Assembly: GCA_964406505.1 (NCBI GenBank)
Contig: CAYORX010000007.1
Location: forward strand, 10,841-74,840
Length of the DNA stretch: 64,000 nucleotides
Source of the DNA: an uncultured Eubacteriales bacterium
Lineage (GTDB): Bacteria; Bacillota; Sulfobacillia; Fermentithermobacillales; Fermentithermobacillaceae
Reading direction: 5' to 3'
Within the stretch, counting starts at the first letter, position 1. Each line of letters opens with the position of its first letter. Both the position numbers and the translations under genes were made by a program. Shown here one piece after another: positions 463-30,741 of this stretch. The notes below the pieces were generated by a model that was not told where the DNA came from, ran no database searches, and saw nothing but the letters and a program-made list of their open reading frames with translations.

Positions 463-473
463 ATTGCCACCTC

Positions 474-1326: not shown

Positions 1327-1947
1327 TCATTCACCGCCGAAATAAGCCCTATCAATACCTACCAACACCCTAAATCCTGTAACTACCATACCAAGAGCAG
1401 CACCTATCATAATCGCTCTATTACCGGCGACGTTTGGAATTTTCATCAACCATTCAGAGGATTTTCCGAAAAATGGGGAAATTAGATTGCCAATTGGTGC
1501 ATTACCGATCATGACCAGAATCCCAGCAATAAGAAGGAATGCAGCATCTATGTTCCTAGCCCTGAAAGCCCGTCTTGCGGCAGATGCTATAAAAAAAATC
1601 ATCATTGAAAACATTGCAGTCCCTAAAGGCTGAAACAATCCATCATATAAAAAAGTGTAGAAGTTCGCTAAATTTTTCGATAACCCCGCTATAGCCATTA
1701 ATATCATACCGGCAAATACAAAAAGTGACATCCACCAATCTTCTTGCTTTGTTTTAATTCGTTTGCCATGCACGACCGACAAATTTGCCGCGGCTAGCGC
1801 CATAGCTAATGCAGAAACGATCGTTCCCCAGTTTTGAACTGTTTCAGCAATGGGAACGACTGCAGGCAAGAATCCTTTTAAAAAATACTCTAAGAGAATT
1901 ATTATTCCGACGGTAAAGCCTATAGCTATTGGTACTTCTTTTCGCAA
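1327..1947 (-). CDS. uncharacterised polytopic membrane protein (~5-6 TM); cassette gene B, copy 1
   Basis: 206-aa hydrophobic ORF with a TTG start preceded by GGAGGT. Paralog of 53429..54061 (..NVAGNRAIMIGAALGMVVTGFRVLVGIDRAYFG vs ..NTAGMRAIMMGAALGVVSTAMKMFLGIDKSYLG). Confidence 0.6.
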   Translation of the reverse strand: MRKEVPIAIGFTVGIIILLEYFLKGFLPAVVPIAETVQNWGTIVSALAMALAAANLSVVHGKRIKTKQEDWWMSLFVFAGMILMAIAGLSKNLANFYTFLYDGLFQPLGTAMFSMMIFFIASAARRAFRARNIDAAFLLIAGILVMIGNAPIGNLISPFFGKSSEWLMKIPNVAGNRAIMIGAALGMVVTGFRVLVGIDRAYFGGE

Positions 1948-1960
1948 TTACGGCACCTCC

Positions 1961-2734
1961 TTACCATTTAAGCAATTCGACTAACTGCATATTTCCCATA
2001 GTTGCCAGCAAGGCCCCAAGAACAATAAAAATAAATGCAAATACTTTTCCATAATCTTGTGCGGCAAGATTTGCTACCTTTTCCGGGTCTTTGCTCAGGT
2101 AAGCGCCGCCTGCAAATATTTCTTCTCCTATAAGCGTATAGTCACAAGATGCCGCAAAAAACGGAACTTGCATAGCTCTAGCTGTGCCAGCAATTGTTAC
2201 AGCACCGACCATTGCCGCAGCCTCAGACAGCATCATCGACTCAGCCTGAAACTCACCAACCATAATGACACTCGCCGTTTTGTCTTGATTCATTATGGTA
2301 AGACAACCCGCTACAAAAGCAAACTGTTGAGATGACACAAATTGAACTGTTTCCGATTTGACAACTTCTGGTCTGCCCTCTTCAAGGTAAGATTGCCTAA
2401 CTACAGCATCAGCTACTGGATATACGTTCGCAGCGGCTATGGCAACTTTCAGTTCTGTATCGTATTTCGCTGTGAGCCTTGCCACGTGGCCAAGTATTTC
2501 GAGCCCTGCTAAATTCTGCGCAGCGCCTGCCGTGGTAATTTCCGTTCTTCCAGGAACATATAATACGGGGCGCCCAAGTTCTGTGGCCCTGCCCACAGCT
2601 TCTTCAATAGCATCTAAACCCGGAATTCTGCGAATATAATAAACCTTTCCTCCCGCAGCACGCTTCATAAAATAAACAACTATACTTAAAAAAACTATGA
2701 AGATGAAAAAAACTGTTTGCTTTCCCTCAACCAA
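1961..2734 (-). CDS. uncharacterised bitopic membrane protein (N- and C-terminal TM helices around a soluble domain); cassette gene A, copy 1
   Basis: The ORF track gives 1961..2752 (TTG). A TTG at 2734 sits 8-9 nt after GGAGGT and aligns better with the ATG start of the paralog 54092..54868 (MIVAGKQ vs ILVEGKQ). Conserved blocks include IRR.P.LDA.EEAVGRATE.GRPV and DY.LIGEEI.A..AYLS. Confidence 0.55.
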   Translation of the reverse strand: MVEGKQTVFFIFIVFLSIVVYFMKRAAGGKVYYIRRIPGLDAIEEAVGRATELGRPVLYVPGRTEITTAGAAQNLAGLEILGHVARLTAKYDTELKVAIAAANVYPVADAVVRQSYLEEGRPEVVKSETVQFVSSQQFAFVAGCLTIMNQDKTASVIMVGEFQAESMMLSEAAAMVGAVTIAGTARAMQVPFFAASCDYTLIGEEIFAGGAYLSKDPEKVANLAAQDYGKVFAFIFIVLGALLATMGNMQLVELLKW

Positions 2735-2890
2735 AATTGATGCACCTCCCAATAGTTAATTGTAAAAGCCTTCAAGATCCACCTCCAATTATTAGATTTC
2801 CTATGATTTCAGATATTCGCGGCTTTATTGTGGTTTTCCTTTAAAAATTTCATTAAATCCCAATATTCTGTATATTTTAGATATTTTTAA

Positions 2891-2930
2891 AAAATCAACA
2901 CCCCTACCACTTACGGTAGAGGTGTTTTAT
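2891..2930. terminator. rho-independent terminator, bidirectional (serves the amidase gene ending at 2949 on the minus strand)
   Basis: aaaaaa-ACACCCCTACC-acttac-GGTAGAGGTGT-tttatt: a 10/11-bp stem with an A-tract on one side and a T-tract on the other. Confidence 0.6.
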
Positions 2931-2948
2931 TAGTTAACTTGCCTGTGC

Positions 2949-4415
2949 TTATGGTATGCTTAAAGGCATCTTCCGATATTGGGTAATATTTTCGAACGAA
3001 TAAGCGATCTTAATTAGCGTACCTTCGCTCCACGGGCGGCCGAGAATTTCTAAACCTATGGGGACTCCGATAGGAGCATCGTCGGTGGGCGAAGAAAACC
3101 CTGCAGGTACCACAACCGATGGAAAGCCCGTGACCGAGCCCAATGCCCCATTTCTTTCAATTTGACTTCCGCCCACAAGACACGCCAACCGTTTTTGATG
3201 GGGAAATATGAGAGCTTCAATATTTTCTTTAGCCATTATCTCCATTACTTTGTCCTGAAGTTTAGCTTTTTTTAGAAGTCTGTCTTTGTAATCTACACTA
3301 TCAGTGCTTAAAGTTTGTGCGTGCTTAAGGTTCTCTTCAATATTTTTATGATACTTACCTGAGGCCAAAACATCGGCCATTGAATGTACTGATGCTCTAT
3401 CGCCAAGATTAACGAGATAGCTATCAAGATCACGTTCCAAATCATGCAAATGTACGCTAATTTCAGATACAATCTGATCTACATCTAGAATCTCTTCTAT
3501 ATCTATTAACGTAGCGCCGTTTTCAGCCATTACTTCGATACATCGTCTGATTGCGCTGTTTACATCCTCGTGTTCCGGGCTTAGCCCAAAAAAGCTTTTT
3601 AGTACACCGAGCCTTACACCTTCAAGGCCACTATGTTCAAGATATTTCGTATAGGATTCGGGAATGTTTTTCACTGCCCATGCCGTGGATGGATCACCTG
3701 GATCGTATCCTGAAATCACATCCAAAACTTTCACAGAATCTTCCACCGTTCTTGTGATTGGACCAGCGGCATCTTGGGTAAGAGAATATGGGATAATCCC
3801 ATTACGGCTTACCAATCCGATCGTCGGCCTAATTCCAACTAAACTACAAGCTGATGCCGGTGACCTTATAGAGTTTATCGTATCAGTACCAATACCTATC
3901 ACACCAAAGTTTGCAGCGATACCCGCCCCAGTTCCTCCGCTAGATCCGCCTGGTGTCCTTGTAAGGTCATAAGGATTAAGTGTCTGGCCCAGAATTGAAC
4001 TCACAGTTTCTCCCCAAACAGCAAACTCGTGGAGGTTAACTTTCGCCAATATTATGGCACCAGCATCCAAAAGTTTTTTAGTAATAAACGCATCTTCTTT
4101 AGGAACATAATCTTGCAGACTTAATGAACCGCCTGTGGTAGGCATATCTTTTGTATCTACATTGTCCTTAAGCAAAACCGGTATGCCGTGGAGTAGCTTT
4201 AATGAACCGTTTTGCTTAAACTCCTTATCTTTTTCGTCAGCTATATCCAAAGCCTTGGGATTCAAATATATAATGGAGTTTAGTGACGGTCCTTTTTGAT
4301 CATAGGCCTCTATCCTTTTCAAATAACCTTCTATCAACTGCCGAAAACTTAGTTCGCCACGCCTCACTGCCTCGTGAATACCGGCAATAGTCAATTCATT
4401 AAAACTTATTGCCAT
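2949..4415 (-). CDS. amidase (amidase-signature family)
   Basis: GGSSGG motif plus the Ser-cisSer-Lys context (..TPGGSSGGTGAGIAA.., ..GTDTINSIRSPAS..). About 490 aa. Start probably ATG at 4415 (MAISFNELT..); the ORF track extends to 4427. Confidence 0.85.
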   Translation of the reverse strand: MAISFNELTIAGIHEAVRRGELSFRQLIEGYLKRIEAYDQKGPSLNSIIYLNPKALDIADEKDKEFKQNGSLKLLHGIPVLLKDNVDTKDMPTTGGSLSLQDYVPKEDAFITKKLLDAGAIILAKVNLHEFAVWGETVSSILGQTLNPYDLTRTPGGSSGGTGAGIAANFGVIGIGTDTINSIRSPASACSLVGIRPTIGLVSRNGIIPYSLTQDAAGPITRTVEDSVKVLDVISGYDPGDPSTAWAVKNIPESYTKYLEHSGLEGVRLGVLKSFFGLSPEHEDVNSAIRRCIEVMAENGATLIDIEEILDVDQIVSEISVHLHDLERDLDSYLVNLGDRASVHSMADVLASGKYHKNIEENLKHAQTLSTDSVDYKDRLLKKAKLQDKVMEIMAKENIEALIFPHQKRLACLVGGSQIERNGALGSVTGFPSVVVPAGFSSPTDDAPIGVPIGLEILGRPWSEGTLIKIAYSFENITQYRKMPLSIP

Positions 4416-7135: not shown

Positions 7136-7521
7136 CTTTGGCATTCTCCCTTCCATGTTAACTTCAGCAACAGTTTGATATGAAATTTATCGAAACTAAT
7201 AGAAATATCACCTACTTTCCTTTTGACTTCAAGAAAATCTTAATTTAGACATCTAGGAATATTAGGCACATACGAAATAAACAACATGTCTAGTATTTAT
7301 GAAATAAGTGTGTATTGCAGCATTTATTTATTGCTTTGTCTATTCTTCAAAAGCATTGAGGTACGGTAATTAATTTTTTATTCTAAATAATCATTCGATA
7401 ATAACACTTGTTATCCCTTTTTTTTACATTTAAATAACTTATATCTAAGAATCATCATTAACCTAACCGTCTATTGCGACAATTATTTGGTTTTCGCTCA
7501 GTATTAATCGCAATATTGTTT

Positions 7522-8313
7522 CTAACTAAATAGCTCCATGTACAATTGCGTTTGAGACAAAACTCGGCCATCTTTAAGTACCCTCATGCTATCGCCAGAT
7601 ATCTCATCTATAAGCACAGTTTTGCCATCTACTTCTCCAAACTCGTATTTTATATCGATTAGTTCTAAATCCTTTGCTTTTAAATGACCTTTTATAATCT
7701 CAGTCGCGTCCCAAACGTTTTGTTTCATGGATTGAATACTTTTTTTTGAAACTAAGCCAAGTGCTACCAAAGCATCTTCGGTAATAAGAGGATCTCCGCG
7801 CTCATCATCTTTTATGGTAAACTCCACGATACTAGGTAGTATCGCACCATGTTTTACAAATTTGCCATAACGACGGACAAAACTTCCCCACGCCTTTTCG
7901 CGACATATAACTTCAACATTAAAAGTTTTCGCTCGTTTGACCACTAACGTGTTAGCCTTATGTCCAAAATCGGAACCCAATCCTATGAAATGGGTTTCAA
8001 TACCCCATTGTCTTAATAAATTGAAAAAATAGACCGTCGTTTTAAGGGCTACGACACCTTTTCCTACTATTTCACCTATCACTTGATCGCCCCCAGGGTC
8101 TACTGCACCTTCTGTCCCCGTTACCGAATCTTTAAAATAAAGCAGTATATTGCCGTCGCCTTTTAAGAAAACATCTTTGGTTTTACCCGAGTAAAGTTTT
8201 TTCAATGTATAACCTCCAAACGCTTGCTTTGTAATTCCATCATTTACCACTAGGCTAATTAGTTTCATAAACTTGCTCAAACTTCTGTTTTGCCACGTCA
8301 TAACTTTACGCAA
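7522..8313 (-). CDS. SAICAR synthetase family protein (PurC-like), orphan
   Basis: Three PurC motifs in canonical order: LYSGKTKDVF, VICREKAWGSFVRRYG, LIDIKYEFG. There is a ~25-aa N-terminal extension, no convincing SD and an uncertain start. No other pur genes are nearby. Confidence 0.55.
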   Translation of the reverse strand: MRKVMTWQNRSLSKFMKLISLVVNDGITKQAFGGYTLKKLYSGKTKDVFLKGDGNILLYFKDSVTGTEGAVDPGGDQVIGEIVGKGVVALKTTVYFFNLLRQWGIETHFIGLGSDFGHKANTLVVKRAKTFNVEVICREKAWGSFVRRYGKFVKHGAILPSIVEFTIKDDERGDPLITEDALVALGLVSKKSIQSMKQNVWDATEIIKGHLKAKDLELIDIKYEFGEVDGKTVLIDEISGDSMRVLKDGRVLSQTQLYMELFS

Positions 8314-12535: not shown

Positions 12536-12560
12536 CTTTCTTAGGATAAAGCAAAACGAT

Positions 12561-12593
12561 AAGGCACGTGAGATTCTACGTGCCTTATTTTTA
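12561..12593 (+). terminator. rho-independent terminator after dppA
   Basis: AAGGCACGT-gagattct-ACGTGCCTT followed by ATTTTTA. Confidence 0.7.
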
Positions 12594-12621
12594 ATTTAAT
12601 AGATTACGGTATGTAAGTTAA

Positions 12622-13542
12622 TTACTCCACCAATCTTGCGCTAACAATCTCCCAAAGTCGCCTGATAGCTTTACCTGCTTCACAATCATAATCTGTAGCA
12701 GGAACACCGTTTACCATAGCTTTTGGGACAGCATGATCGTACGGTATTTCGCCCGCAAGATCGCAATCCATTCGTTCGGCAATATCTTTAATGGTCTGGG
12801 TGTTTTCTAGGTCAATATCATATTTATTTATACAAATAAGCACGGGCACTTGGAAGTGATGACAAACATCGATTATACGCTCAAGATCACTTATCCCCGA
12901 CAAGGTTGGTTCAGTAACGATAAGCGCTAGATCTGCACCTGTGACACATGCAATAACCGGACATCCGGTGCCGGGAGGGCCATCAGTTATGATTATATCT
13001 TTATTCTTTTTCCGTTGGATCTCTTTGCCTTTTATTCTTACGGCAGAAACAAGCTTGCCAGAATTCCCTTCGGCTGGCTCTAACCGCGCATGAATAAAAG
13101 GACCATGATCTGTTTCTGAAATATACCAATGTCCAGACAATGCATCTTTCATAGTGATTGCATTTTCGGGGCATACATGGAAACAGAATCCACAACCCTC
13201 ACACAATAGTTCAATGGATTGAAATGTTCCGTCATCGTTTTTAACAATAGCCCCAAATCGGCAAGTTTCAAAACATTTACCGCAATTAGAACAAATGCTA
13301 GGATCTATATAGGCTTTTTTTGATGCATAAAATGGATACGTCTTTGTATTCCTGGGGTTCAAAAGAAGTGCCAAGTTAGCTGCATCTACATCGCAATCAC
13401 ACAGTACGGCTTTTTGAGCAAGATAAGAAAACCCTCCCGCAACCGAAGTCTTGCCTGTACCACCTTTTCCGCTAAGAATTACCAGTTCGCGTCCTTTACT
13501 TGCACTAGATGACTTGGTTTGTGAATCTACCTGCATTGGCAA
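12622..13542 (-). CDS. MinD/ParA-superfamily P-loop ATPase with inserted 2x[4Fe-4S] ferredoxin domain
   Basis: Walker A SGKGGTGKTS. Two Cys clusters: CSNCGKCFETCRFG and CEGCGFCFHVCPEN. Confidence 0.8.
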   Translation of the reverse strand: MPMQVDSQTKSSSASKGRELVILSGKGGTGKTSVAGGFSYLAQKAVLCDCDVDAANLALLLNPRNTKTYPFYASKKAYIDPSICSNCGKCFETCRFGAIVKNDDGTFQSIELLCEGCGFCFHVCPENAITMKDALSGHWYISETDHGPFIHARLEPAEGNSGKLVSAVRIKGKEIQRKKNKDIIITDGPPGTGCPVIACVTGADLALIVTEPTLSGISDLERIIDVCHHFQVPVLICINKYDIDLENTQTIKDIAERMDCDLAGEIPYDHAVPKAMVNGVPATDYDCEAGKAIRRLWEIVSARLVE

Positions 13543-13593
13543 CGTTCTCCTTTCACAACTTTAATATCTGCTTTTCATCTTGCGCGGCCGGAC

Positions 13594-14496
13594 TTATGAA
13601 CCAGCGCTTTTACGTTGGGACAATCTCTCTACTTTGAGTAATAATTCTTTAAACATGTTTCGATAGTATCTCGAGTGAGCAATGATAGGTTCTCCCCTTG
13701 CATAGAGTTCTGCTATCTTACGATCAAGCGGAATTTCTAAAAGTATCGGAATGTTTTGAGACCTGCAATATTCCTCGACCCTTGTATCGCCAAGATCACA
13801 TCTGTTAATAACTACTCCAGATGGGATGTCAAGTTTTTCCAAAGTTTCAACAGCTAACACTAGATCGTGAAGACCGAAAGGAGTCGGTTCTGTAACAAGA
13901 ATACAAAAATCCGTATTCATAACAGACTCGACCATAGAACACGAATTACCCGCGGGAGCGTCTAGAAACACGGTACCCTTGTCGCGTACCGTAGATCTTA
14001 CACAATCGATCACTGCGGGTGCTAACGGTTCACCCGGATCTAAAAACCCATGGGTGAATAATAGCGGTGCAGCCTGATTTTCGATGTGTTTCAAACTTGC
14101 CGTTCCTGATTCTACAGTACCGATCTGTCTAATAATTTCATTTATTGCTTTGGTAGGACATAGGTATGTGCATACCCCACAACCATGACAAAGTTCAGGT
14201 AATAACAGTATGCTATTTTTAGCAACCACTATGGCATTAAATTCGCAATTATCGCGGCATATGCCACAATATGTACATTTGGTTTCGTCTATTTCAGGAC
14301 TTTTAATTTCAACCGTTTGCTTATTTGCAATTTTAGGATTAAGAAACACATGACAATTAGGCCCTTCAACATCACAATCTAAAAGTTGGATTTCAGAACC
14401 TCGAGACTCATTTTGGGCAGCTTTGGTTAATGCGAGATTGACAGCTACCATTGTCTTGCCGGTTCCTCCTTTTCCACTGGCCACAGAAATTTGCAT
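13594..14496 (-). CDS. MinD/ParA-superfamily P-loop ATPase with inserted 2x[4Fe-4S] ferredoxin domain (paralog of the gene downstream)
   Basis: Walker A SGKGGTGKTM. Cys clusters: CTYCGICRDNCEFN and CHGCGVCTYLCPTK. Confidence 0.8.
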   Translation of the reverse strand: MQISVASGKGGTGKTMVAVNLALTKAAQNESRGSEIQLLDCDVEGPNCHVFLNPKIANKQTVEIKSPEIDETKCTYCGICRDNCEFNAIVVAKNSILLLPELCHGCGVCTYLCPTKAINEIIRQIGTVESGTASLKHIENQAAPLLFTHGFLDPGEPLAPAVIDCVRSTVRDKGTVFLDAPAGNSCSMVESVMNTDFCILVTEPTPFGLHDLVLAVETLEKLDIPSGVVINRCDLGDTRVEEYCRSQNIPILLEIPLDRKIAELYARGEPIIAHSRYYRNMFKELLLKVERLSQRKSAGS

Positions 14497-14756
14497 TGGC
14501 GAACTCTCCTATCTGCGGTTTCTCATAATAAACAACTTAGCGCCCCCGAGTGCCTAGATCTATTCAGATCCGCAAATTTGCATCGGCAAGCGCACATGAC
14601 TTTCTTTGTGGGAGAGGGAGAACAAAACTCCCCTCCCCATAACTTTATTAAATTTCTTGAAAACCACATTTGTAATTAGCACACAGAAAACCCATTTAAA
14701 CATTTAAAACTCTTTATGTTCTTCGTTGATTAGCATAATAAGTTTTTGCATTACAT

Positions 14757-14957
14757 TTATCTTCTACGTCTTGATATCCAACCAACCGGTCTTGACAACC
14801 ATCTCCATCCAAAACCTCTGCCCCTTCGACCTAATCCAAGACCAATCCCTCGGCCACGATTAAGAAATCCCGGAAGGAGGTATCTTGCACAATACCCTAA
14901 ACCTCTGCCTGTCATCGGACCGCGGCCCAAAGGACCAGTCCTATCTCCACCTGGCAT
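14757..14957 (-). CDS. small Gly/Arg-rich protein of the kind found next to NifX-like genes (DUF5320-like, from memory)
   Basis: MPGGDRTGPLGRGPMTGRGLGYCARY..RGRGIGLGLGRRGRGFG. ATG at 14957 with AAGGGGGA 7 nt upstream. The antisense plus-strand 150-aa ORF is rejected. Confidence 0.55.
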   Translation of the reverse strand: MPGGDRTGPLGRGPMTGRGLGYCARYLLPGFLNRGRGIGLGLGRRGRGFGWRWLSRPVGWISRRRR

Positions 14958-14988
14958 ATTTAATCCCCCTTTCAGAATTCGCATAACT

Positions 14989-15369
14989 TTATCTATATCT
15001 ATTTCCTCTTCCTCGCCTCGAAGAACCAGCTATTCCTTTATGCAACTCAAGTTCACCATCGCGGAATTTTTTAACTACTTCGGATACGATTTCGCTTGGA
15101 TCAGCATCGTACATTGCAATTTCGCAAGCAGTAAGAGCAGCAAAAGCGTTAGGCCCCACATGGTTCGCGCACACAGCTTCTACACCTTTATCAGATAAAA
15201 TCTGCGCTGCCTCAGGACCTGCGCCATGACCTGAAGTCGTGGCCGGGTTCGCGGTTGCCTCAATAGAATCAGTATCCAGATCGACTATAACAAAATAAGC
15301 ACATCTACCAAATCTTGAATCTACCTGTGCATCTAAATTATCTCCTTGAGAACAAACTGCAATTTTCAA
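14989..15369 (-). CDS. dinitrogenase FeMo-cofactor-binding domain protein (NifX/NifB C-terminal-like)
   Basis: MKIAVCSQGDNLDAQVDSRFGRCAYFVIVDLD.. is the typical small NifX-like fold signature. TTG start with GGGAGG SD. Confidence 0.7.
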   Translation of the reverse strand: MKIAVCSQGDNLDAQVDSRFGRCAYFVIVDLDTDSIEATANPATTSGHGAGPEAAQILSDKGVEAVCANHVGPNAFAALTACEIAMYDADPSEIVSEVVKKFRDGELELHKGIAGSSRRGRGNRYR

Positions 15370-15452
15370 TTTTAAAAGCCTCCCGCAAATTTAATCAAAA
15401 CCACGCTACCATACTAGCTTGCTCTTTATGTTACTGATATATACCCACAACC

Positions 15453-15480
15453 ATTGTAACGTGTTTTGAATATATGTCAA
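15453..15480 (-). promoter_or_regulatory. sigma-A-type promoter: TTGACA-16 nt-TACAAT driving the NifX-like/MinD-like cluster
   Basis: Minus-strand TTGACAtatattcaaaacacgtTACAAT. The -35 is at 15475-15480 and the -10 at 15453-15458, about 80 nt upstream of the TTG start. Confidence 0.55.
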
Positions 15481-15494
15481 TAATTCTATAGGAT

Positions 15495-16856
15495 TTATTC
15501 TTGGTTTTGCCTTCTATGCATCCGAGAACCATGAAGCACAGCCCACGGCTTGTCACAAACTGTGCCATCATCTCGATCATGAAAATAAAACCGAAGTACT
15601 CGCTGTTGTCCCATATCATCGTAAAACAAGGTGCGGTCATCACTTGCCTTAACCCGAGTCTTTGTTTCGGGGGTTTTCAATAAAATGGCGCTGCCATCCA
15701 TAAAGATCTCGATTCGCCCCCCTTCATCGTTTCGATAAAGTCCAACGAATCTTTGTAATTGCTCGGCCGTAGCATGACAATCTACCTCAACGCTTTTTTG
15801 CGTGTCCAAAGGTAAACCAAGAACTGTATTGACTGCGGCAAGCCAGATCGCAGCCGCAGGAACGGCTCTTACGTTTGTAAGCACGGCTACTGTTAGGTTT
15901 TTTTCTGGAACAAAACCAAAATTCGATGATACACCGGGCTGCGCACCGCTATGTTCTACAAGTGTGATACCGCTATCTGCATAATCAGATGTTACGCGTA
16001 GCGCAAAATTGTAATGGGTCTTTCTGTCTATGGGATACATAGGCGAGTTCCACATCTTTTTAAGCGCTCTGCTAGGCGCAATTCGATGCCCATCGGGCCC
16101 GAGCCCACCTTTAAGGTAAACTTGTCCATATTTCACAAGATCCAGAACACAAGATCTTACTCCACCCCCAACCTCATAAGTACCAAGAACAGGCCATTCA
16201 TGCTTTTCATGAGTTTTTGTTGAGTGATCATAAACATATGGAGTGGAAAGGTTACCCATCTTTTCAAGTTCCTCAATGTTATAAGTAGAACGATTCATAC
16301 CTAATGCATCAAGAATATGCTGTGTCATGTACCGCCGATATATCTGTCCACTTTTGTTTTCAATGAGTAGTCCATTTAATAAAAACGTGTCATTACAATA
16401 ACTGAAATACTCCCCCGGCCTTCCTAATAAATCATAATCTGCATTAGCAATATACCTTACGTGCTCGCGAAGATCGATTATATCTTGTCGACGCTTCATA
16501 GGCGGAACTCCAGTCGTATGTGACAAAAGGTGGCGAATTTTTATAGCTGACATATCTTTTGCACCCACAAGGCTGAATTCTGGAATATGTTTGATAACCG
16601 AATCGTCTGAATTAAGCATTGATTTACCTTCAAGTTGAGCTATAGCCATCGCAGTAAAAGATTTTGATACTGAAGCACACCCGAAAATTGTGTTAGGATT
16701 CACTGGTTCTTGTGATTCTAAATCTACAACGCCAAACCCCTTTGCATAAATTAATTCTTTATCGTTAGCTACTGCAACTGCCGCCCCGACTATATGGTTC
16801 AATTCCATTGTTTTATCAACATATTGCTCAAAAGCCGCCCAATCTACTTTTGTCAT
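15495..16856 (-). CDS. serine hydrolase of the beta-lactamase/D-aminopeptidase/PBP fold
   Basis: SVSKSF (SxxK) active-site motif near the N-terminus. About 450 aa. Likely start MTKVDWAAF.. at 16856 with GGAGGG SD (track: 16934). Confidence 0.7.
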   Translation of the reverse strand: MTKVDWAAFEQYVDKTMELNHIVGAAVAVANDKELIYAKGFGVVDLESQEPVNPNTIFGCASVSKSFTAMAIAQLEGKSMLNSDDSVIKHIPEFSLVGAKDMSAIKIRHLLSHTTGVPPMKRRQDIIDLREHVRYIANADYDLLGRPGEYFSYCNDTFLLNGLLIENKSGQIYRRYMTQHILDALGMNRSTYNIEELEKMGNLSTPYVYDHSTKTHEKHEWPVLGTYEVGGGVRSCVLDLVKYGQVYLKGGLGPDGHRIAPSRALKKMWNSPMYPIDRKTHYNFALRVTSDYADSGITLVEHSGAQPGVSSNFGFVPEKNLTVAVLTNVRAVPAAAIWLAAVNTVLGLPLDTQKSVEVDCHATAEQLQRFVGLYRNDEGGRIEIFMDGSAILLKTPETKTRVKASDDRTLFYDDMGQQRVLRFYFHDRDDGTVCDKPWAVLHGSRMHRRQNQE

Positions 16857-17047
16857 TATCGGCCCTCCCATCCTTTTACTTATTTTCAATAGTTCGCCGC
16901 GTTGGAAGGTTATTCCTATCTTAAACGTTTTCAATCAAATACTGACACTGGTCGTCGATAGCAAACTGCAATAATCGAAAACAGGCCTGCAATTTATAAT
17001 ACAGGCCCGCATTGGTTTGAAGGTGATTAGGTTGTGTTTTTACATCG

Positions 17048-17239
17048 TTATGTTTCTACATCAAACCCCAAATCATCAAGTGCTTCTACAACTATCTTTA
17101 CGTCATTATCATCGCCATCTACAGATATTGTTTTGTTATCAAGAGAAACTTCAAACTTAACACTAGCCGCGTTAAGCGCATTCTTTATTCGGCTTACGCA
17201 ATTTTCACAATGCATTTCAGGTACTTTAAGCGTTTTCAT
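17048..17239 (-). CDS. copZ: copper chaperone, HMA domain
   Basis: 63 aa. MHCENCVSRI metal-binding motif. Confidence 0.85.
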   Translation of the reverse strand: MKTLKVPEMHCENCVSRIKNALNAASVKFEVSLDNKTISVDGDDNDVKIVVEALDDLGFDVET

Positions 17240-17257
17240 GTAAACATCTCCAATCTC

Positions 17258-17542
17258 TCATTTCATGAGCCTTCGCACAATTCGTACAAGTTCATCGACA
17301 ACCTCTTTATCATCTGCCTTGATACCCTCGGCAACACATGTTCTAATATGGTTCCCTATAAGCTCTTTGTTAAATGCATTAAGCGCAGACTGAATTGCCG
17401 ACACTTGAGTAAGAATGTCTATGCAATAAACCTCATTTTCAACCATCCTGCGCACTCCGCGCACTTGACCTTCTATTCGACTCAATCGATTGATTAAAGA
17501 TCTATATTCAGTTTGCTCCCGATGTTTCTTTTTGTCGCTCAT
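17258..17542 (-). CDS. csoR: CsoR-family metal-sensing transcriptional repressor
   Basis: 94 aa. ..RIEGQVRG..RM...YC.D.L.Q..A....L is typical of CsoR/RcnR. Confidence 0.8.
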   Translation of the reverse strand: MSDKKKHREQTEYRSLINRLSRIEGQVRGVRRMVENEVYCIDILTQVSAIQSALNAFNKELIGNHIRTCVAEGIKADDKEVVDELVRIVRRLMK

Positions 17543-19788
17543 AGTTTTTTTCCTCTAAGCCTAAGCGCATTGGTTACCACAAATACTGAACTCAGACTCA
17601 TCGCCAAAGCCCCAAACATGGGAGACAAGAGTAAACCGAAAACGGGATATAACACACCTGCGGCAAGGGGAATTCCTAAAGTATTGTAGAAAAATGCCCA
17701 GAACAAGTTTTGCTTTATATTCTTTATGGTCAAGCGACTCAAATTAACTGCTTTAGGAACATCCATAAGATCGCTTTTCATAAGTACGATGTCCGCTGAC
17801 TCAATAGCAATATCGCTTCCACTTCCAATAGCGCACCCAACATCAGCTTGAACCAAAGCAGGAGCATCATTTATTCCATCGCCGACCATCATTACAAGAC
17901 TTCCTTCTTCTTGTAGACCCTGAATTACAGCTGCTTTATCTTCGGGCAAAACTTCTGCAATTACTTCATCTACTCCAACTATATTGCCTATATGTTCTGC
18001 TGCACCCTTGTTGTCACCGGTTAACAATACGACCTGTAAACCAAGCGCTTTTAATCGCTGAATTGCATTTTTGCTCGTTTCTTTGATCGAATCAGATACA
18101 CTAATAAGACCGGCAAAATTATCATTCGTTGCCACGAACATTACTGTTTTGCCTTGTGATGATAAACGTGCAGCTTTTTGAAGCATGACATCCTCCACAT
18201 CAATATTAGTATCTTGCATTAGTTTTTGATTACCTACAGACACTTTTCGACCATCCGATAATACCGCAGAAACACCTTTCCCGGAATAGTTCTGAAAATC
18301 GGAGATAGACAAATCGCTATCTACACCGTGCTCTGTCGCACCTTTTACTATTGCCTCAGCCAAGGGATGAGAAGAACCCGCCTCAACAGCCGCCGCCATA
18401 GATAATAATTGCTCAGGTTTGATTCCGTTAGGAACAACGTCTGTCACTGTCGGTTTACCTTCGGTCACAGTTCCTGTTTTATCAAGCACAACCACTTCAA
18501 CATTATGCGTAACTTCTAGCGCCTCACCACTTCTTATGAGAATACCGTTATTAGCACCTAGTCCGGTACCCACTACAATAGCTGTAGGAGTTGCAAGCCC
18601 CATAGCACAAGGACAAGCAATTACTAAGATAGACGTAAATATTCTGATTACGAAAGAAGGTTCTTTACCTACTAATAACCATACGATACTAGAGATAACA
18701 GCAATGGCCATCACGATAGGTACGAATACACCTGCTACTTTATCAGCCATTTTTGATATAGGTGCCTTTTTGCCTTGGGCATCCTCAACAAACTGTATTA
18801 TTTTTGCTAATACAGTATCTTCACCCACCCGTGTTATGCGCACTACAAGCACACCATTTTGATTCATGCTTCCACCTATAACTTCGCTACCTATAGTTTT
18901 TTCGACAGGTAAACTTTCACCCGTAAGCATAGACTCATCTACACCGCTTGCCCCGTCGGTTACAATGCCATCTAATGGAACCTTACTGCCAGGCTTCACA
19001 ATCACAAGATCATTCACTTTTAGCGTATCGGTAGAAACTTGCTGCTGAGTACCATCGGACCTAAGAAGGAGCGCCGTATCAGGAGCTAGTTCCATAAGTT
19101 TCCTAATGGCTCCCGTAGTTCTTCTTTTGCTACCTTCTTCCATGTGCTTACCCAAAGACACCAAAGCCACTACGATGGCAGCAGATTCAAAATAAAGACC
19201 ATGAACAAGCTCTGGTGCATCTGTTAGCATGAATAAAATACCAAGACTGTATAAAAAAGCTGCTGAACTCCCAATAGCTACTAAAGAATCCATGTTAGGG
19301 TTGCGATACCACAACGCCTTAAAACCGCTAATGTAAAATCTTCGTTCGATAAAAAGAATGACTATAGTCAAAAGCATTTGCACTATGGCATGGTTGATAG
19401 GATAACTTTCAATACTTATGAATTTAGGCAAAGGTGCGTTAAATATCATATTGCCCATAGATACATATAACAAAATCGCAGACAAAATTAAGGCAACGGC
19501 AATATTAGCTCGTTCTTTGCGAAATGCTGCTTGCTCCTCTTCTTCAACGACCTCAATTTTGGGGATAATTTGGTCAATTGATGGAAGGGCGCGAAAACCG
19601 GCCCGACTTACTTTTTCCATGATCTGATCCGGAGAAACTTGAGCCTCATCATATTCAATGGTCATTTTGCCTGTAGTCAAATTAACATCAGAACGGGTAA
19701 CCCCGGGAAGTTTGCGGGTAACTCGTTCTACTGCCGAAGAACATGCCGCACAATGCATACCTTCAACGATATACTCTTCCTGCTTCAT
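17539..19788 (-). CDS. copA: copper-translocating P1B-type ATPase
   Basis: N-terminal GMHCAACSS HMA domain, CPCAMGLATP, DKTGTVT, GDGINDAP. Start ATG at 19788 (MKQEEY..) behind AAGGAGGG (track: 19854). Confidence 0.9.
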   Translation of the reverse strand: MKQEEYIVEGMHCAACSSAVERVTRKLPGVTRSDVNLTTGKMTIEYDEAQVSPDQIMEKVSRAGFRALPSIDQIIPKIEVVEEEEQAAFRKERANIAVALILSAILLYVSMGNMIFNAPLPKFISIESYPINHAIVQMLLTIVILFIERRFYISGFKALWYRNPNMDSLVAIGSSAAFLYSLGILFMLTDAPELVHGLYFESAAIVVALVSLGKHMEEGSKRRTTGAIRKLMELAPDTALLLRSDGTQQQVSTDTLKVNDLVIVKPGSKVPLDGIVTDGASGVDESMLTGESLPVEKTIGSEVIGGSMNQNGVLVVRITRVGEDTVLAKIIQFVEDAQGKKAPISKMADKVAGVFVPIVMAIAVISSIVWLLVGKEPSFVIRIFTSILVIACPCAMGLATPTAIVVGTGLGANNGILIRSGEALEVTHNVEVVVLDKTGTVTEGKPTVTDVVPNGIKPEQLLSMAAAVEAGSSHPLAEAIVKGATEHGVDSDLSISDFQNYSGKGVSAVLSDGRKVSVGNQKLMQDTNIDVEDVMLQKAARLSSQGKTVMFVATNDNFAGLISVSDSIKETSKNAIQRLKALGLQVVLLTGDNKGAAEHIGNIVGVDEVIAEVLPEDKAAVIQGLQEEGSLVMMVGDGINDAPALVQADVGCAIGSGSDIAIESADIVLMKSDLMDVPKAVNLSRLTIKNIKQNLFWAFFYNTLGIPLAAGVLYPVFGLLLSPMFGALAMSLSSVFVVTNALRLRGKKL

Positions 19789-19830
19789 ATTAGCTCCCTC
19801 CTTTGCAATTTCAATTCCATTAATTACATT

Positions 19831-19847
19831 ATACCCCCCAGGGGTAT
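19831..19847 (-). promoter_or_regulatory. putative CsoR operator upstream of copA
   Basis: GC-rich inverted repeat ATACCCC-N3-GGGGTAT, 43-59 nt upstream of the copA start. It resembles known CsoR operators. Confidence 0.5.
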
Positions 19848-19995
19848 AAGTCAATCACAATAGAATCAATAACCGTAAAATCCCATTTGAACTTTTCAGG
19901 CATTTAAGCAAAGAACCGGTTAGACAATTAAACCTACTTCGCGTTTCATCTAGTGTAACCTAGCCAATGAGGATAATAGTAAGTGGGACAATAGA

Positions 19996-22883: not shown

Positions 22884-24506
22884 TTAAAATCCTAGCGCAA
22901 CACCATCCACTCTCGTATCCGACCCTGCCAATAACGCACCTGTCTCCATATGCTTCATAATAATCTGTGCTCCACCGCCTCCCGAAAAAGGTCCTACCGT
23001 TTCTACCGAATGACCCATTTGGGCAAGACTATCAATGGTGTCCTGCGGAAACCTTGATTCCAACATAAGTTTAGGCGCACCTCCAACCCCGATCATGTCT
23101 GTCCCCGGATAAGACCTCCACCTCGGAAACTCCACAGCTTGTTGTGGACCCAGTTGGTGATCTAATATGAGGCTCAAAATCTGCATATTCCATTGAGGCT
23201 GCCCATCCCCGCCAAGTGTTCCGCCCACAATAAACGGCCTATCATCTTTGAAAACCATATAACAATTGAGGGTATGCATGGGCCGTTTACCGGGCATAAG
23301 GCAATTGGGATGCCCAGATATTAGATTAAAAGATCTACCTGCACGGTTGTTAAGCAATACTCCTGTTCCTGGAACCATGACACCTGATCCAAAGGAAAAG
23401 GCGATACTGTGAATAAACGAACAACAATTTCCCTGCTTATCCCACGCAACAAAAGATGTTGTATCACCGTTTATAGTGGTGTCTGTACCTATCGGGCTCG
23501 ATCTAAAACGAGTGATCCGATTCGCCATTTCGCGTGCATAATCTTTTGAAATTAATTTCGATACATCGAAATCTGTAAACTGAGGATCACCAGCAAAAGC
23601 GTTTCGGTCAGAAAAAGCGACTTTTTTAGCCTCAACCATAAGATGTATCGCTTCATATGACAATGGATTGATTTGAGGGAAATCAAAGTTTTCTATGATA
23701 TTCATCTGTTCCAAAACTAAAAACCCTGGAGAAACCGGGGCAGTCTCAAGGATCTCAAATCCTCTATAGTCTGTACTAATTGGCTTGTACCACGAAGTAG
23801 ATTCTTCAAAATGCCGTGAAAATTCGTCACCATGAAAAGTTCCTTTAGCTTTGCGATTGATCTCATAAAATTTTTCTGCGAAAGCACCTTTATAGAAGTA
23901 TTCAGCCCCTTGATGTCCAAATTCCCTAAGGGTATGAGCAAGTTCCGTCTGTTTTAGCACAGTTCCTGCTTTAGGTGCCTTTCCATTAGAAAGAAAGATT
24001 TTCGAGGATTCAGTATAACGCGAGAGCTTATTCTGCGCGTTTTGCACATCTCTTTCAAATCTTGGCGTAACTACAAACCCCTCTTCTGCTATCTTCGCTC
24101 CCGCCTTAAAGCATTTGCTGAGCGAAAATGTACCAAATCTTTTAGCTGCAAGTTCATAAACTAAAGGTGCCCCTGGCACTGCTACCGACATTATCCCGTC
24201 TTGTGGTAAAATTTCCACTTCACCTACAAAACGTTCTAACGTAGAACCATCACCTGATACACCACTACCGTTAATAGCGTGAACACCACCTTTTGTAGCA
24301 TCGTAATATATCAAAAATGCATCTCCGCCTAGGCCACACATATGGGGTAGAACCGCTGAGGTAACGCTTACCATAGTCAAACATGCATCCATCGCGTTTC
24401 CGCCGGAACGAAGCGCATTGTATCCAGCGATCGTAGCTAATGGATGTGCAGCCGCAACCATACCACTTTTTCCAAAAGTTGAATCTGCAAACGTTGACTT
24501 AAACAT
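22884..24506 (-). CDS. gamma-glutamyltransferase family protein (Ntn hydrolase), no signal peptide
   Basis: MVAAAHPLATIAGYNAL..GGNAMDA N-terminal block and ..NGDTTSF.. nucleophile region. 540 aa. Confidence 0.8.
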   Translation of the reverse strand: MFKSTFADSTFGKSGMVAAAHPLATIAGYNALRSGGNAMDACLTMVSVTSAVLPHMCGLGGDAFLIYYDATKGGVHAINGSGVSGDGSTLERFVGEVEILPQDGIMSVAVPGAPLVYELAAKRFGTFSLSKCFKAGAKIAEEGFVVTPRFERDVQNAQNKLSRYTESSKIFLSNGKAPKAGTVLKQTELAHTLREFGHQGAEYFYKGAFAEKFYEINRKAKGTFHGDEFSRHFEESTSWYKPISTDYRGFEILETAPVSPGFLVLEQMNIIENFDFPQINPLSYEAIHLMVEAKKVAFSDRNAFAGDPQFTDFDVSKLISKDYAREMANRITRFRSSPIGTDTTINGDTTSFVAWDKQGNCCSFIHSIAFSFGSGVMVPGTGVLLNNRAGRSFNLISGHPNCLMPGKRPMHTLNCYMVFKDDRPFIVGGTLGGDGQPQWNMQILSLILDHQLGPQQAVEFPRWRSYPGTDMIGVGGAPKLMLESRFPQDTIDSLAQMGHSVETVGPFSGGGGAQIIMKHMETGALLAGSDTRVDGVALGF

Positions 24507-24713: not shown

Positions 24714-25436
24714 TTAAGTTATATTTCGGGTTAGGTTTCGCCAAACTAAGTGGTTTTGAATTTCGTCGGGACTTCCTTGACATTGTATCTGCCCGTGATC
24801 TAAAACAATAACCCGCGAAGCTAAAGCCTGCACTTCTGCAAAATCATGAGTAACTAATACAGTGGTGGTTTGCTGCTCTTTTAAAATTTGTTTAAACTGC
24901 GCGACAAGGCCTTGCCGGGTAATTACATCGACAGAAGCAAAGGGTTCATCCAAAAATAAAACTTCCGGTTCAAGTACGAAAGCCCTAGCTAGCGCAGTTC
25001 TTTGGGCTTCTCCACCCGACAATGTATAAGCGGGTTGGTCTGCCAAATGAATAAGCCCGAAACGTTCAAGCCATCCATCAATATAGCTTGCATTTCTTTT
25101 GATTTTTCTCAAAGATAACCCTAGTTTTACGTTTTCTTTTACAGTCCCTTCAAGCAAGAGTGGTTCTTGGAATACTACCGCCATCCGGCGTCTTACATCT
25201 AATACATTGACGCGGGTAACCTTTTCTTGCTTAAAAATTACACTCCCGCGTTGAGGAGGGTCTAGGCATGCCATAACAGAAATCAAAGTGCTTTTCCCCG
25301 CACCATTAGGTCCTATAACAGCTACAACTTCTCCCGGATTCACATACATTTCAAACACATCAAGAATCTTCCGAGTCCCTTTCACTACTTCAACTTTGTG
25401 AATTCTAAGAACCGACGGTTTTTTCGCAAACCCCAT
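24714..25436 (-). CDS. tupC: tungstate ABC transporter ATP-binding protein
   Basis: Walker A GPNGAGKST, LSGGE signature, Walker B LFLDEP. In operon with tupB and tupA. Confidence 0.7.
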   Translation of the reverse strand: MGFAKKPSVLRIHKVEVVKGTRKILDVFEMYVNPGEVVAVIGPNGAGKSTLISVMACLDPPQRGSVIFKQEKVTRVNVLDVRRRMAVVFQEPLLLEGTVKENVKLGLSLRKIKRNASYIDGWLERFGLIHLADQPAYTLSGGEAQRTALARAFVLEPEVLFLDEPFASVDVITRQGLVAQFKQILKEQQTTTVLVTHDFAEVQALASRVIVLDHGQIQCQGSPDEIQNHLVWRNLTRNIT

Positions 25437-25482
25437 CGCTTAAACCACCCCATGCATTTGCTGAAAAATAATGATTACACCA

Positions 25483-26181
25483 TTAAGCTTTTTGACGTTT
25501 TTGCTGCAATCGCGTAAGTAAAGCCGTAATTCCATAACTAAAAGCCACTAGTATGAACCCCAAAGCAATCGCAACATCAAAATCACCTTTCCTGATCTCT
25601 AACACAATAGACGTCGTCAAGACCCTAGTTTCATGAAGTATATTTCCTCCGACAGCCATTGAGGCACCGACCTCAGCAATTACCCTTCCAAGTCCGGCAA
25701 TAATGGCTCCTAGCAATCCGAATCTGCATTCTTTAAGAAGTAACCACCAGAGCTGCAAAGGCGAGGCCCCTAGGGCAAGAATCTGTAACCTTAATTTGGG
25801 GTTTAACTGCTGAACAGCCGCCATTGTAAGGCCCGTAACAATAGGGGTAGCAATCAAGGCTTGAGCTATGATCATTGCAGCCGGTGTATACATTAACCTA
25901 AAAGTACCTAAAGGCCCGTTTCTCCATAAAAACAAACTAACCCAAAGACCTGCTACGGTAGGTGGAAGAGCCATCCCGGCATTTACGAACGAAATTACTA
26001 CGTTTCTACCTCTGAAACGGCCTATTGCAAGGCAAAGTCCCAATGGAAGCCCGATCATGACGCTTATCAATGTGGCAGACCCAGATACTTTTATAGTGAG
26101 AATTACAATTTCGACAATTGCGGGGTCTCCCTTCAGTATCAGCAATATAGCTTGTTTGAGTCCTCCCCAAAGAAATTTCAC
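25483..26181 (-). CDS. tupB: tungstate ABC transporter permease
   Basis: 232-aa BPD-type permease. Adjacent to tupA. Confidence 0.7.
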   Translation of the reverse strand: MKFLWGGLKQAILLILKGDPAIVEIVILTIKVSGSATLISVMIGLPLGLCLAIGRFRGRNVVISFVNAGMALPPTVAGLWVSLFLWRNGPLGTFRLMYTPAAMIIAQALIATPIVTGLTMAAVQQLNPKLRLQILALGASPLQLWWLLLKECRFGLLGAIIAGLGRVIAEVGASMAVGGNILHETRVLTTSIVLEIRKGDFDVAIALGFILVAFSYGITALLTRLQQKRQKA

Positions 26182-26298
26182 TCGGTTTTCTCCTTTTACC
26201 TATGATTTCATAGCTTAAAATTACGATTTGCCCTAGCCCTTCACTTGAGATAAGAAAAAGCGATACGCCCACAAGTTCTAAAGCTAGGGCATTGTCAG

Positions 26299-27159
26299 TT
26301 AGTTAGGTTCCGATTTACCCGCATCGGGAACAAATAACGGTTCGCCAAATTTGTCAACACCGAAATCGGCGATTATGTCTTGAACTTCTTCTGAAATCAT
26401 AAACTCCACAAATGCTTGTGCACCGTCTGCATTAACCTTTTCAAATTTTTCCGGATTTACTTGCATCACATGATAAATATTCAAAAGAATAAGATCTTTT
26501 TCAACTAATACTTCGAGGTCCAGGGTATCTTTAAGTGCAAGGTATGTACCTCTATCGGTAAATACGTACGCCTCTTTTTCAGACGCAATAGCTAAAGTGT
26601 CGCCCATCCCCGCACCTGCTTCAACATACCAGCTACCATCAGGCTCGATTTCCGCCGTTTTCCAGATTTCCAATTCTTTCTTATGGGTACCTGAATCGTC
26701 ACCCCTCGATACGAAAGTAGATTGATTTTCAGCTATCTGGGCATAAGCAACCGCTGCAGATGTTTGACCTTTTATACCCGCAGGATCGCTTTCAGGGCCG
26801 CAAATAATAAAATCGTTATGCATAACTAGCTGCCTATTTACAGCGTGACCACTTTCTACAATTTCTTCTTCAGATGCAGGCGCGTGCGTTAAAAGTACAT
26901 CAGCTTCACCTTCTTTTCCCAGAGCTAGTGCCGCACCGGTACCTACTGCTACTGTTTTTACTTTATATCCTGTTTCTTCCTCAAAAATGGGAATTAACTT
27001 GTCAAGTAAGCCGCTGTCTTGAGTGCTCGTGGTTGTAGCTAATATCACTTCAGTGACCGAAGTCTCTTGAGGCTGGCAACCTACAATGGTCGTTACGATC
27101 GTAATTGCTAAAATTACCATAGAAAATAATTTAAGACTCTTTAGTTTTGATTTCATCAT
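26299..27159 (-). CDS. tupA: tungstate ABC transporter substrate-binding lipoprotein
   Basis: Lipoprotein signal (..IVGC) followed by ILATTTSTQDSGLLD, the TTTS oxyanion-binding signature of TupA. Confidence 0.75.
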   Translation of the reverse strand: MMKSKLKSLKLFSMVILAITIVTTIVGCQPQETSVTEVILATTTSTQDSGLLDKLIPIFEEETGYKVKTVAVGTGAALALGKEGEADVLLTHAPASEEEIVESGHAVNRQLVMHNDFIICGPESDPAGIKGQTSAAVAYAQIAENQSTFVSRGDDSGTHKKELEIWKTAEIEPDGSWYVEAGAGMGDTLAIASEKEAYVFTDRGTYLALKDTLDLEVLVEKDLILLNIYHVMQVNPEKFEKVNADGAQAFVEFMISEEVQDIIADFGVDKFGEPLFVPDAGKSEPN

Positions 27160-27384
27160 TCACTACCCCCCAGGTGGTTTTCATCAACTTACCTAAACTG
27201 CGAAACTACGTTCACCTCCTGAATATTTGATTCAAGCGCCTACAAATCGATAGTTTGTACAATTTCCCACAAGATAAAATAAGCGCCTCCTCTGGCGTTT
27301 ATGATATTAATAGAGATCATGCGCATTGGCAGATCGCTTACCTTTCCAACCGTAATTACAGATGTACCGGCAAAGATCCCTATT

Positions 27385-29343: not shown

Positions 29344-29361
29344 CCAAATTCACCTCTGGTT

Positions 29362-30700: not shown

Positions 30701-30741
30701 TTCCTTCATCATTACTTTTGACAAAATTTTATCTTTGACCT

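Follow-up and report, generated by a model that had tools for sequence, protein, structure and literature searches.

A four-gene ORP-type operon with a DUF5320 gene, a conserved sigma-70-type promoter block and a spacer hairpin in an uncultured Fermentithermobacillaceae bacterium

Introduction

The orange protein (ORP) complex, made of Orp3, Orp4, Orp5, Orp8 and Orp9, has been studied in Desulfovibrio since 2011 (PMC6345978, PMC8359166). In this study, we analysed a 64,000-nucleotide (nt) stretch of contig CAYORX010000007.1 from an uncultured Eubacteriales bacterium of the Fermentithermobacillaceae (hereafter the window), and describe a four-gene minus-strand operon of the ORP type at 15480..12559. 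It encodes an ORP-type carrier protein, a small DUF5320 protein and two paralogous ATPases with ferredoxin-like inserts.

Several components of the Desulfovibrio complex have been characterised. Orp3 and Orp4 are ATPases with two [4Fe-4S] motifs each, and Orp8 is the ORP itself, whose homologue in D. gigas carries a non-covalent [S2MoS2CuS2MoS2] cluster. Orp5 is small and homologous to a [2Fe-2S]-binding protein, whereas Orp9 (MrpORP) gives Fe-S clusters to the Orp3-Orp4-Orp8 complex. A rise in redox potential shuts off expression of the orp genes, and this redox control is exerted by OrpR (PMC6345978, PMC8359166, PMC3897727). In D. vulgaris, His-Orp3 co-purifies with Orp4 and Orp8 (PMC6345978).

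The orp operons of D. vulgaris Hildenborough, D. gigas and D. alaskensis have the same order as the operon in the window, with an ORP-type protein followed by two ferredoxin-insert MinD-class ATPases, and a distribution restricted to anaerobes is common to both. However, the Desulfovibrio genes form two divergent operons transcribed by sigma-54 with OrpR and integration host factor (IHF), whereas the window has one four-gene operon behind a sigma-70-type promoter with a conserved block. The window operon also lacks MrpORP, an Orp7-type NifX and a Zn-ribbon gene, and has two extra features, a gene for a short DUF5320 protein and a hairpin-bearing spacer of 260 nt. The sequence identity is only 35-44%.

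Few gene sets are specific to strict anaerobes; the ORP system is among them, and there is no agreement on its function. The four-gene version under a sigma-70 promoter is a convenient minimal set for reconstitution. New here are the linkage to DUF5320, a large family now placed in the ORP neighbourhood, the pair of a short and a long DUF5320 paralogue, the fusion of the two ATPases in some lineages, the spacer hairpin and the conserved promoter block of the sigma-70 type. These findings refine a known, poorly understood system and do not overturn current views of it.

Results

Organization of the operon

The operon and its parts are as follows.

15480..12559, minus strand: operon with promoter, four genes and hairpin terminator
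15438..15483, minus strand: promoter block, with -35 TTGACA at 15480..15475 and -10 TACAAT at 15458..15453
14989..15369, minus strand: ORP-type (Orp8-like) gene of the NifX/MTH1175 fold, PF02579, 126 aa
14757..14957, minus strand: short DUF5320 gene, PF17253, 66 aa
14497..14756, minus strand: intra-operon spacer, 260 nt
14607..14639, minus strand: GC-rich hairpin in the spacer, from folding, shuffles and RNAalifold
14504..14525, minus strand: 22-nt element GAGAAACCGCAGATAGGAGAGT, similar to locus L088 and including the ribosome-binding site
13594..14496, minus strand: ATPase a, CbiA/ParA and Fer4, 300 aa
12622..13536, minus strand: ATPase b, CbiA/ParA and Fer4, 304 aa from ATG
12559..12588, minus strand: two-way terminator hairpin, from a terminator scan of both strands

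The terminator at 12588..12559 is common to the operon and a convergent Peptidase_M55 gene, and the gene calls of public assemblies give the same four genes. A preliminary description of the locus had proposed a promoter of the form TTGACA-16-TACAAT, a NifX-like protein with a TTG start, a 66-aa Gly/Arg-rich protein, a 260-nt gap and two paralogous MinD/ParA-type ATPases with two 4Fe-4S Cys clusters each. All of these were recovered, with the gap at 14756..14497, and Pfam supported each of the assignments to Nitro_FeMo-Co, DUF5320 and the 4Fe-4S ATPases. The genes are real, yet the system that they form is already known and in part characterised: the earlier statement that the combination has no assigned function does not stand, as this is a Firmicute-type version of the ORP cluster. 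The role in metallo-cofactor or Fe-S processes considered plausible there agrees with the ORP literature.

The ORP-type carrier protein

The first gene encodes a 126-aa protein with a single Nitro_FeMo-Co domain (PF02579, 78.4 bits against a cut-off of 26.3) and an Arg/Gly-rich C-terminal tail. Its PDB matches were MTH1175 (1EO1, 1e-19) and D. gigas ORP (2WFB, 3.2e-18, residues 2-111). The alignment to MTH1175 begins at residue 1, which supports the TTG start, and a GGGAGG ribosome-binding site lies 9 nt upstream of it. The MTH1175 (1EO1) and TM1290 (1RDU) family, which gives the top sequence match, is equal in length and has an Arg/Gly-rich tail as well, but its members are structural-genomics structures with no assigned ligand or partner. 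Compared with the two classes of NifX-fold genes found in ORP clusters, the protein scored higher against the ORP-type gene (71 and 60 bits in loci L005 and L006) than against the second NifX-type gene (41 bits). By analogy with D. gigas ORP, we predict that it is an Orp8-type carrier of a non-covalent metal-sulfur cluster.

The Pfam family name, and the annotation of another PDB match (1O13) as 'probable NifB protein', would fit a true NifX/NafY-type helper for the FeMo-cofactor of nitrogenase. We consider this very improbable. The top matches are MTH1175 and ORP rather than NifX, the NifX-like gene is linked to ORP-type ATPases in every relative, and no nif genes are listed in the related loci. 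As stated in the preliminary description, nitrogenase genes are also absent from the window, at least among the 40 larger open reading frames (ORFs) scanned with Pfam, a set that leaves a few ORFs of at least 110 aa outside. Other partners known from ORP clusters (Mrp, DUF134, Zn-ribbon and a second NifX) were not found in the window.

The two ATPases

The ORP-type gene shares its operon with two ferredoxin-insert MinD-class ATPase genes, whose products are 29% identical to each other. Each product matched CbiA/ParA and two Fer4 motifs in Pfam, and has the deviant Walker A SGKGGTGKT with its signature lysine. The ferredoxin insert of ATPase a (residues 74-113) holds two CX2CX2CX3C motifs at Cys 74/77/80/84 and 103/106/109/113, and that of ATPase b has Cys 82/85/88/92 and 112/115/118/122. 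The start of ATPase b was placed at the ATG at 13536 (304 aa), as in the public gene calls; a mechanical ORF list starts it two codons earlier, at the first in-frame start, TTG at 13542 (306 aa).

To describe conservation, we made alignments of ATPase a (41 sequences) and ATPase b (37 sequences) across many phyla, and found that SGKGGTGKT and all eight ferredoxin Cys are 100% conserved in both sets. Conserved too are DCDVE in ATPase a, DCDVDA in ATPase b, and VTEP(T). A further invariant Cys lies eight residues past the Walker B Asp (Cys186 in DxPxGxSC of ATPase a, Cys192 in DGxPGxGCPV of ATPase b). We take the position of this switch-II Cys to be like that of NifH Cys132, and use the parallel as a lead only. 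Outside the ferredoxin insert, the alignments contain no conserved CXXC.

The weak NCBIfam match of the ATPases to MrpORP (50-54 bits against a cut-off of 450) was what pointed to the ORP literature; the ApbC model gave 31 bits against 348. We compared the window ATPases with those adjoining genes 68-75% identical to D. gigas ORP. ATPase a scored 207 bits to the first ORP-operon ATPase versus 120 to the other, and ATPase b scored 254-258 bits to the second versus 111-123 to the other. Together with the equal gene order, these scores indicate a one-to-one orthology between the window pair and the two ATPases encoded beside ORP, which are of the Orp3/Orp4 type. The PDB matches of the carrier, this orthology and the preference for ORP-type genes identify the cluster as the core of an ORP operon.

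We also found fusions of ATPase a to ATPase b, in that order, at L053 5541..7433, L051 1523..3541 and L068 1..1737. The fused proteins have about 580-670 aa, with two Walker A and four cluster motifs each, and their hosts are metagenome-assembled genomes (MAGs) of Deltaproteobacteria, Verrucomicrobia and Stahlbacteria. Fusion in three unrelated lineages, along with the published co-purification, supports a heterodimer, and we infer that ATPase a and ATPase b would pair likewise in this organism.

The AlphaFold2 model of ATPase a (predicted local distance difference test, pLDDT, 91.6; predicted template modelling score, pTM, 0.87) has a predicted C-terminal helix at 276-299. In Foldseek, its nearest solved folds were archaeal MinD (best), ApbC, ATPase-type HypB and Cfd1, a group made up mostly of ATPases that deliver metal or Fe-S; NifH and BchL ranked lower. 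The closest named relatives of ATPase a, with about 50-53% identity, come from MAGs of Bacillota and Dethiobacteria. The deviant Walker A and the fold are shared with the Mrp/NBP35/ApbC/Cfd1 families and ATPase-type HypB (SIMIBI class), nucleotide-dependent dimers that deliver metal or Fe-S. However, Mrp/NBP35 carry a CXXC motif, whereas the window ATPases have in its absence a 2x[4Fe-4S] ferredoxin domain after switch I and the single switch-II Cys.

Such a fold raises the alternative that the ATPases are MinD-like positioning proteins, which would act in redox-dependent septum placement or cell division and not in cluster handling. With MinD they share the fold, the Walker A with signature lysine and the C-terminal helix, and archaeal MinD is the top structural match of ATPase a. 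Loss of OrpR in D. vulgaris gives morphological defects, and a septum-positioning role has been proposed; Orp3 and Orp4 have a MinD-like C-terminal amphipathic helix, and MrpORP is polar (PMC6345978). But the window ATPases differ from MinD by the ferredoxin insert, and no MinC, MinE or division genes were present among the scanned neighbours of the operon. The NCBIfam MinD models TIGR01969 and TIGR01968 gave only 63-66 bits against cut-offs of 202-213. Moreover, the constant linkage to a NifX-fold carrier, the Fe-S inserts and the neighbouring Fur, FeoB and radical SAM genes point to metal chemistry, and the role is still called unclear by those who proposed it. We thus regard a positioning role as unlikely.

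Syntenic relatives

All fetched loci with homologues of D. gigas ORP (68-75% identical) have the ORP gene followed directly by two ferredoxin-insert MinD-type ATPases. Nearer relatives of the window operon, found at L088/L089, L090/L091 and L096, have the order NifX-like, short DUF5320, long DUF5320, ATPase a, ATPase b. Their ATPase a is 74%, 66% and 52% identical, respectively, to that of the window. The convergent Peptidase_M55 gene is retained in the first two pairs, and a convergent DapB gene lies downstream in its place in L096. The tandem DUF5320 paralogues are at the following positions.

L088 1953..2718: short and long DUF5320 paralogues in tandem
L090 4297..4908: short and long DUF5320 paralogues in tandem
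L096 3051..3800: short and long DUF5320 paralogues in tandem

The short paralogue has the GW.WL..P..WI..RRR tail of the window protein, and the long one has the coiled coil. The window and L004 have the short gene only. Gene callers missed the short DUF5320 gene in L088-L091.

Additional genes accompany some ORP-type clusters. L090 also carries, at 1564..3664 next to the ORP-type operon, a divergent operon of DUF134, a Mrp-like ParA (261 aa) and a NifX (113 aa), plus a DtxR-family (Fe_dep_repress) gene; the window has none of these. In other lineages, at L094 1..6806 and L095 3769..6735, a radical SAM gene follows the ATPase pair and an unannotated ORF of 70-72 aa precedes it; the L094 cluster sits behind FeoB and Fur.

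The DUF5320 protein

The 66-aa protein matched PF17253 (DUF5320) with 61.4 bits against a gathering threshold of 27. It starts with the motif MPGGDRTGPLGRGPMTGRGLGYC, continues with a Gly/Arg-rich middle and ends in a Trp/Arg tail, and all 14 invariant columns of the family alignment (A1, 28 sequences) are present in it. Of the codon differences from the 78%-identical L004 orthologue, 31 are synonymous and 13 non-synonymous, and 38 of the 59 base differences fall at third positions. This pattern indicates purifying selection on the ORF. An exact copy of the protein is called as a gene in public assemblies. The 150-aa ORF on the opposite strand had no Pfam match; antisense ORFs are open in the relatives as well, which is attributed to Gly/Arg codon bias. 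The protein that the preliminary description had picked out against this antisense frame is thus encoded by a real gene.

The Pfam match covers only profile positions 1-57, the C-terminal amphipathic or coiled-coil segment that most members have (about 60-99) is missing, and AlphaFold2 predicted disorder (pLDDT 51.8). The orthologues in L004, L088 and L090 likewise end in the Trp/Arg tail, which defines a short subfamily. The family as a whole is large, with 8,697 clusters at 50% identity (profile search, E <= 1e-3); among the 150 best matches listed, nearly all are stand-alone proteins of 95-190 aa. A literature search for DUF5320 under that name returned unrelated mentions only. Across bacteria and archaea, the first 23 residues of alignment A1 (MPxGDxTGPxGxGPxTGRxxGxC) are almost invariant, and are followed by Gly/Arg-rich low complexity and then usually by a C-terminal amphipathic helix.

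A search for the motif in one genome of each GTDB species yielded 566 relatives, of which we annotated the 80 best loci. These span Planctomycetota, Ignavibacteria, Zixibacteria, Atribacterota, Omnitrophota, Spirochaetota, Chloroflexota and others. An ORP/NifX-like gene is present in 61 of the 80, and lies within 1.5 kb in 56. Where enough flanking sequence was available (n=35), ORP was found in 30 loci, both ATPases in 26, all three in 25 and none in 4. DUF5320 is therefore a systematic neighbour of ORP clusters. The gene combination had been expected to recur in strict anaerobes of both domains. This holds for anaerobic bacteria, but archaea contributed DUF5320 homologues alone: the two archaeal loci fetched, L035 and L058 (a Methanosaeta and an Asgard MAG), had no ORP or ATPase matches.

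At L097, the ORP is 70% identical to that of D. gigas, and DUF5320 adjoins an OrpR-type PAS/sigma-54 regulator with C-x8-C-x3-C. DUF5320 may tentatively be proposed as an overlooked, near-universal ORP subunit in bacteria and archaea, although we hold this to be somewhat less than an even prospect. Its N-terminal motif, with one conserved Cys, would dock on the ATPase heterodimer or the ORP carrier as a cluster ligand. The disordered Gly/Arg region with its coiled coil or Trp/Arg tail would oligomerise or localise the complex. The protein might even be Orp5, on which the evidence from gene context is split between the gene beside the L097 regulator and a Zn_ribbon_8 gene in L005, L006 and L099.

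Two further observations concern the neighbours of the family. Between a DUF134 gene and the D. gigas-type ORP operon of L006, a 112-aa Gly/Arg/Gln-rich ORF (7414..7752) has no Pfam match and a faint likeness to DUF5320 (E = 0.002 in a tiny database). Genes of the DUF134 family flank 12 of the 80 DUF5320 loci, which makes DUF134 a candidate regulator of such clusters.

The promoter block

The sigma-70-type promoter TTGACA-16-TACAAT matches 11 of the 12 consensus positions and is the sole site of the region to do so. It is part of a 46-nt block, TTATTGACATATATTCAAAACnCGTTACAATGgttatGGGTATATA (15483..15438), which hardly varies among the window, L004, L088 and L090 (alignment A3). In contrast, the remaining 5' untranslated region (UTR) has diverged among these four loci, and their proteins are just 66-78% identical. 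In L088, an insertion sequence (IS) element (75..1297, HTH_Tnp_1 and rve transposase) lies directly upstream of the block and has left it intact. The conservation of the block amid a diverged 5' UTR, together with this upstream insertion, supports a working promoter.

No further copy of the block was found in the window, and public metagenome contigs gave only two hits, both in contigs already among the compared loci. We read the block as a sigma-70 promoter with a probable overlapping operator. Its near-invariance points to a dedicated regulator that would differ from OrpR.

The intra-operon spacer

The spacer between the short DUF5320 gene and ATPase a is 260 nt long in the window, and the equivalent spacers have 254 nt in L088, 200 nt in L096, 92 nt in L090 and 71 nt in L004. 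At 14639..14607 we identified the hairpin GGGGAGGGGAG-UUUUGUU-CUCCCUCUCCC. The best 45-nt window of the spacer folds with -19.2 kcal/mol, compared with -15.9 kcal/mol for the lowest of 40 shuffles. L088, L090 and L096 have spacer hairpins that likewise beat all shuffles, whereas the 71-nt spacer of L004 has no such hairpin. RNAalifold on three lineages gave 11 pairs, 4 of them with compensatory changes. We infer that the conserved hairpin is a candidate intra-operon attenuator, or an element for RNA stabilisation or processing, which would set the ratio of the small proteins to the ATPases.

Other origins of the spacer were also considered. The gap could be a decayed long DUF5320 gene or could hide an internal promoter for the ATPase genes, the latter as suggested earlier; we find both quite doubtful. 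A long DUF5320 gene does stand between the short one and ATPase a in L088/L089, L090/L091 and L096, and L004, which also lacks the long gene, has a spacer of only 71 nt. However, the DUF5320 hidden Markov model (HMM) scored below 1 bit when run on the gap in all six frames. Searches by tblastn and blastn were empty except for 22 nt beside the ATPase start. L088 has a 254-nt spacer besides its long gene, which marks the spacer as a separate feature. As for the promoter, no minus-strand site in the gap reached at least 9 of 12 consensus matches. Rfam gave no family in the operon or spacer, whether on the region at a relaxed E-value or on the whole window. Origin as a repeat or mobile element was rejected: the spacer has no second copy in the window, and none at other loci apart from near-identical contigs.

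Immediately before the start of ATPase a, a 22-nt element (GAGAAACCGCAGATAGGAGAGT) is 95% identical to its L088 counterpart, while the rest of the two spacers is unalignable. The translation-initiation regions of the two ATPase genes are also alike (GGAGAGTTCGCCAATGCA at 14504..14525 versus GGAGAACGTTGCCAATGCA at 13537..13560, both minus strand). This likeness may stem from the gene duplication or reflect a regulatory feature common to both genes.

Proposed function of the operon

We propose that this minimal sigma-70-driven ORP operon of an uncultured anaerobe encodes an ATP- and redox-coupled machine for handling metal-sulfur clusters, a reading that we favour with moderate confidence. In this scheme, the two ATPases would pair into a heterodimer in an ATP-dependent manner, and the pair would bind the ORP carrier. 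Movements of the switch regions, driven by nucleotide, would be coupled to the low-potential Fe-S clusters so that, in a strongly reducing milieu, a metal-sulfur cluster (Mo/W-Cu-S or Fe-S) could be assembled, reduced or passed on. DUF5320 would use its invariant N-terminal Cys motif to serve as an adaptor or as an additional ligand of the cluster, and the spacer hairpin would probably reduce ATPase expression compared with that of the two small proteins. Complex formation and metal content are carried over from Desulfovibrio by analogy, while the part played by DUF5320, the direction of cluster transfer and the effect of the hairpin are our suggestions.

Several points weigh against this proposal. 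The comparison of the switch-II Cys with NifH Cys132 is a tentative one. The operon has no MrpORP, second NifX-type, DUF134 or Zn-ribbon gene, all of which many ORP clusters have, and so may depend on genes elsewhere. ORP clusters without DUF5320 also occur (L005, L006 and L099, with the Cys-rich Zn_ribbon_8 gene in its stead), and DUF5320 is thus not obligatory. With regard to the spacer, its fold as a whole is no better than that of shuffles (z = -0.73). The hairpin in it is without a U-tract, and none of the hairpins of the relatives has a clear one. Finally, the physiological role of ORP has been called "still unclear", and a role in cell division was proposed (PMC8359166).

A different use of the same proteins would be sequestration or detoxification of thiomolybdate and copper. 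In sulfidic cells, thiometallates would arise from molybdate or tungstate with sulfide and trap Cu; the ORP would bind the Mo-Cu-S cluster that results, and the ATPases would load or unload it. This idea draws on the non-covalent [S2MoS2CuS2MoS2] cluster of D. gigas ORP and, weakly, on two features of the window: a CsoR-CopZ-CopA unit one gene away from the operon (17048..19854), and an ATP-binding cassette (ABC) transporter with a molybdenum cofactor (Moco) riboswitch about 9-12 kb away (24714..27502). However, these two features are not conserved among the relatives, copper genes are not beside the operon in L088-L091, L096 or most of the 80 loci, and the neighbours elsewhere are related to iron, such as Fur and FeoB in L094 and the DtxR-like gene in L090. 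The Mo-Cu cluster may also be a species that depends on purification, which counts against this explanation. Altogether, we consider a copper-related function improbable, and retain cluster handling as the preferred role.

Surroundings of the operon

The copper-efflux unit at 17048..19854 (minus strand) consists of genes for a CsoR-type repressor, a CopZ-like HMA protein and a P1B ATPase of the CopA type. The single gene between this unit and the operon (15495..16934) belongs to the beta-lactamase family. L001-L003 have this arrangement too, whereas the more distant relatives do not.

The Moco riboswitch at 27378..27502 (minus strand) scored 59.9 bits against a gathering score of 36. Downstream of it, genes for a PBP_like_2 binding protein, a permease and an ABC ATPase (27159..24714, minus strand) probably form a tungstate/molybdate-type uptake system. 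A T-box leader (30470..30721, minus strand, 116.8 bits) lies upstream of an operon of ABC_sub_bind, BPD_transp_2 and ABC_tran genes (30378..27639).

The window is also rich in genes for peptide and amino-acid catabolism (for example 1961..2752, minus strand; 22884..24506, minus strand; 35925..37517, plus strand). These include two gamma-glutamyltranspeptidases, several peptidases of the M20, M24, M28 and S9 families, and amidohydrolases, and a DUF6754 protein is encoded as well.

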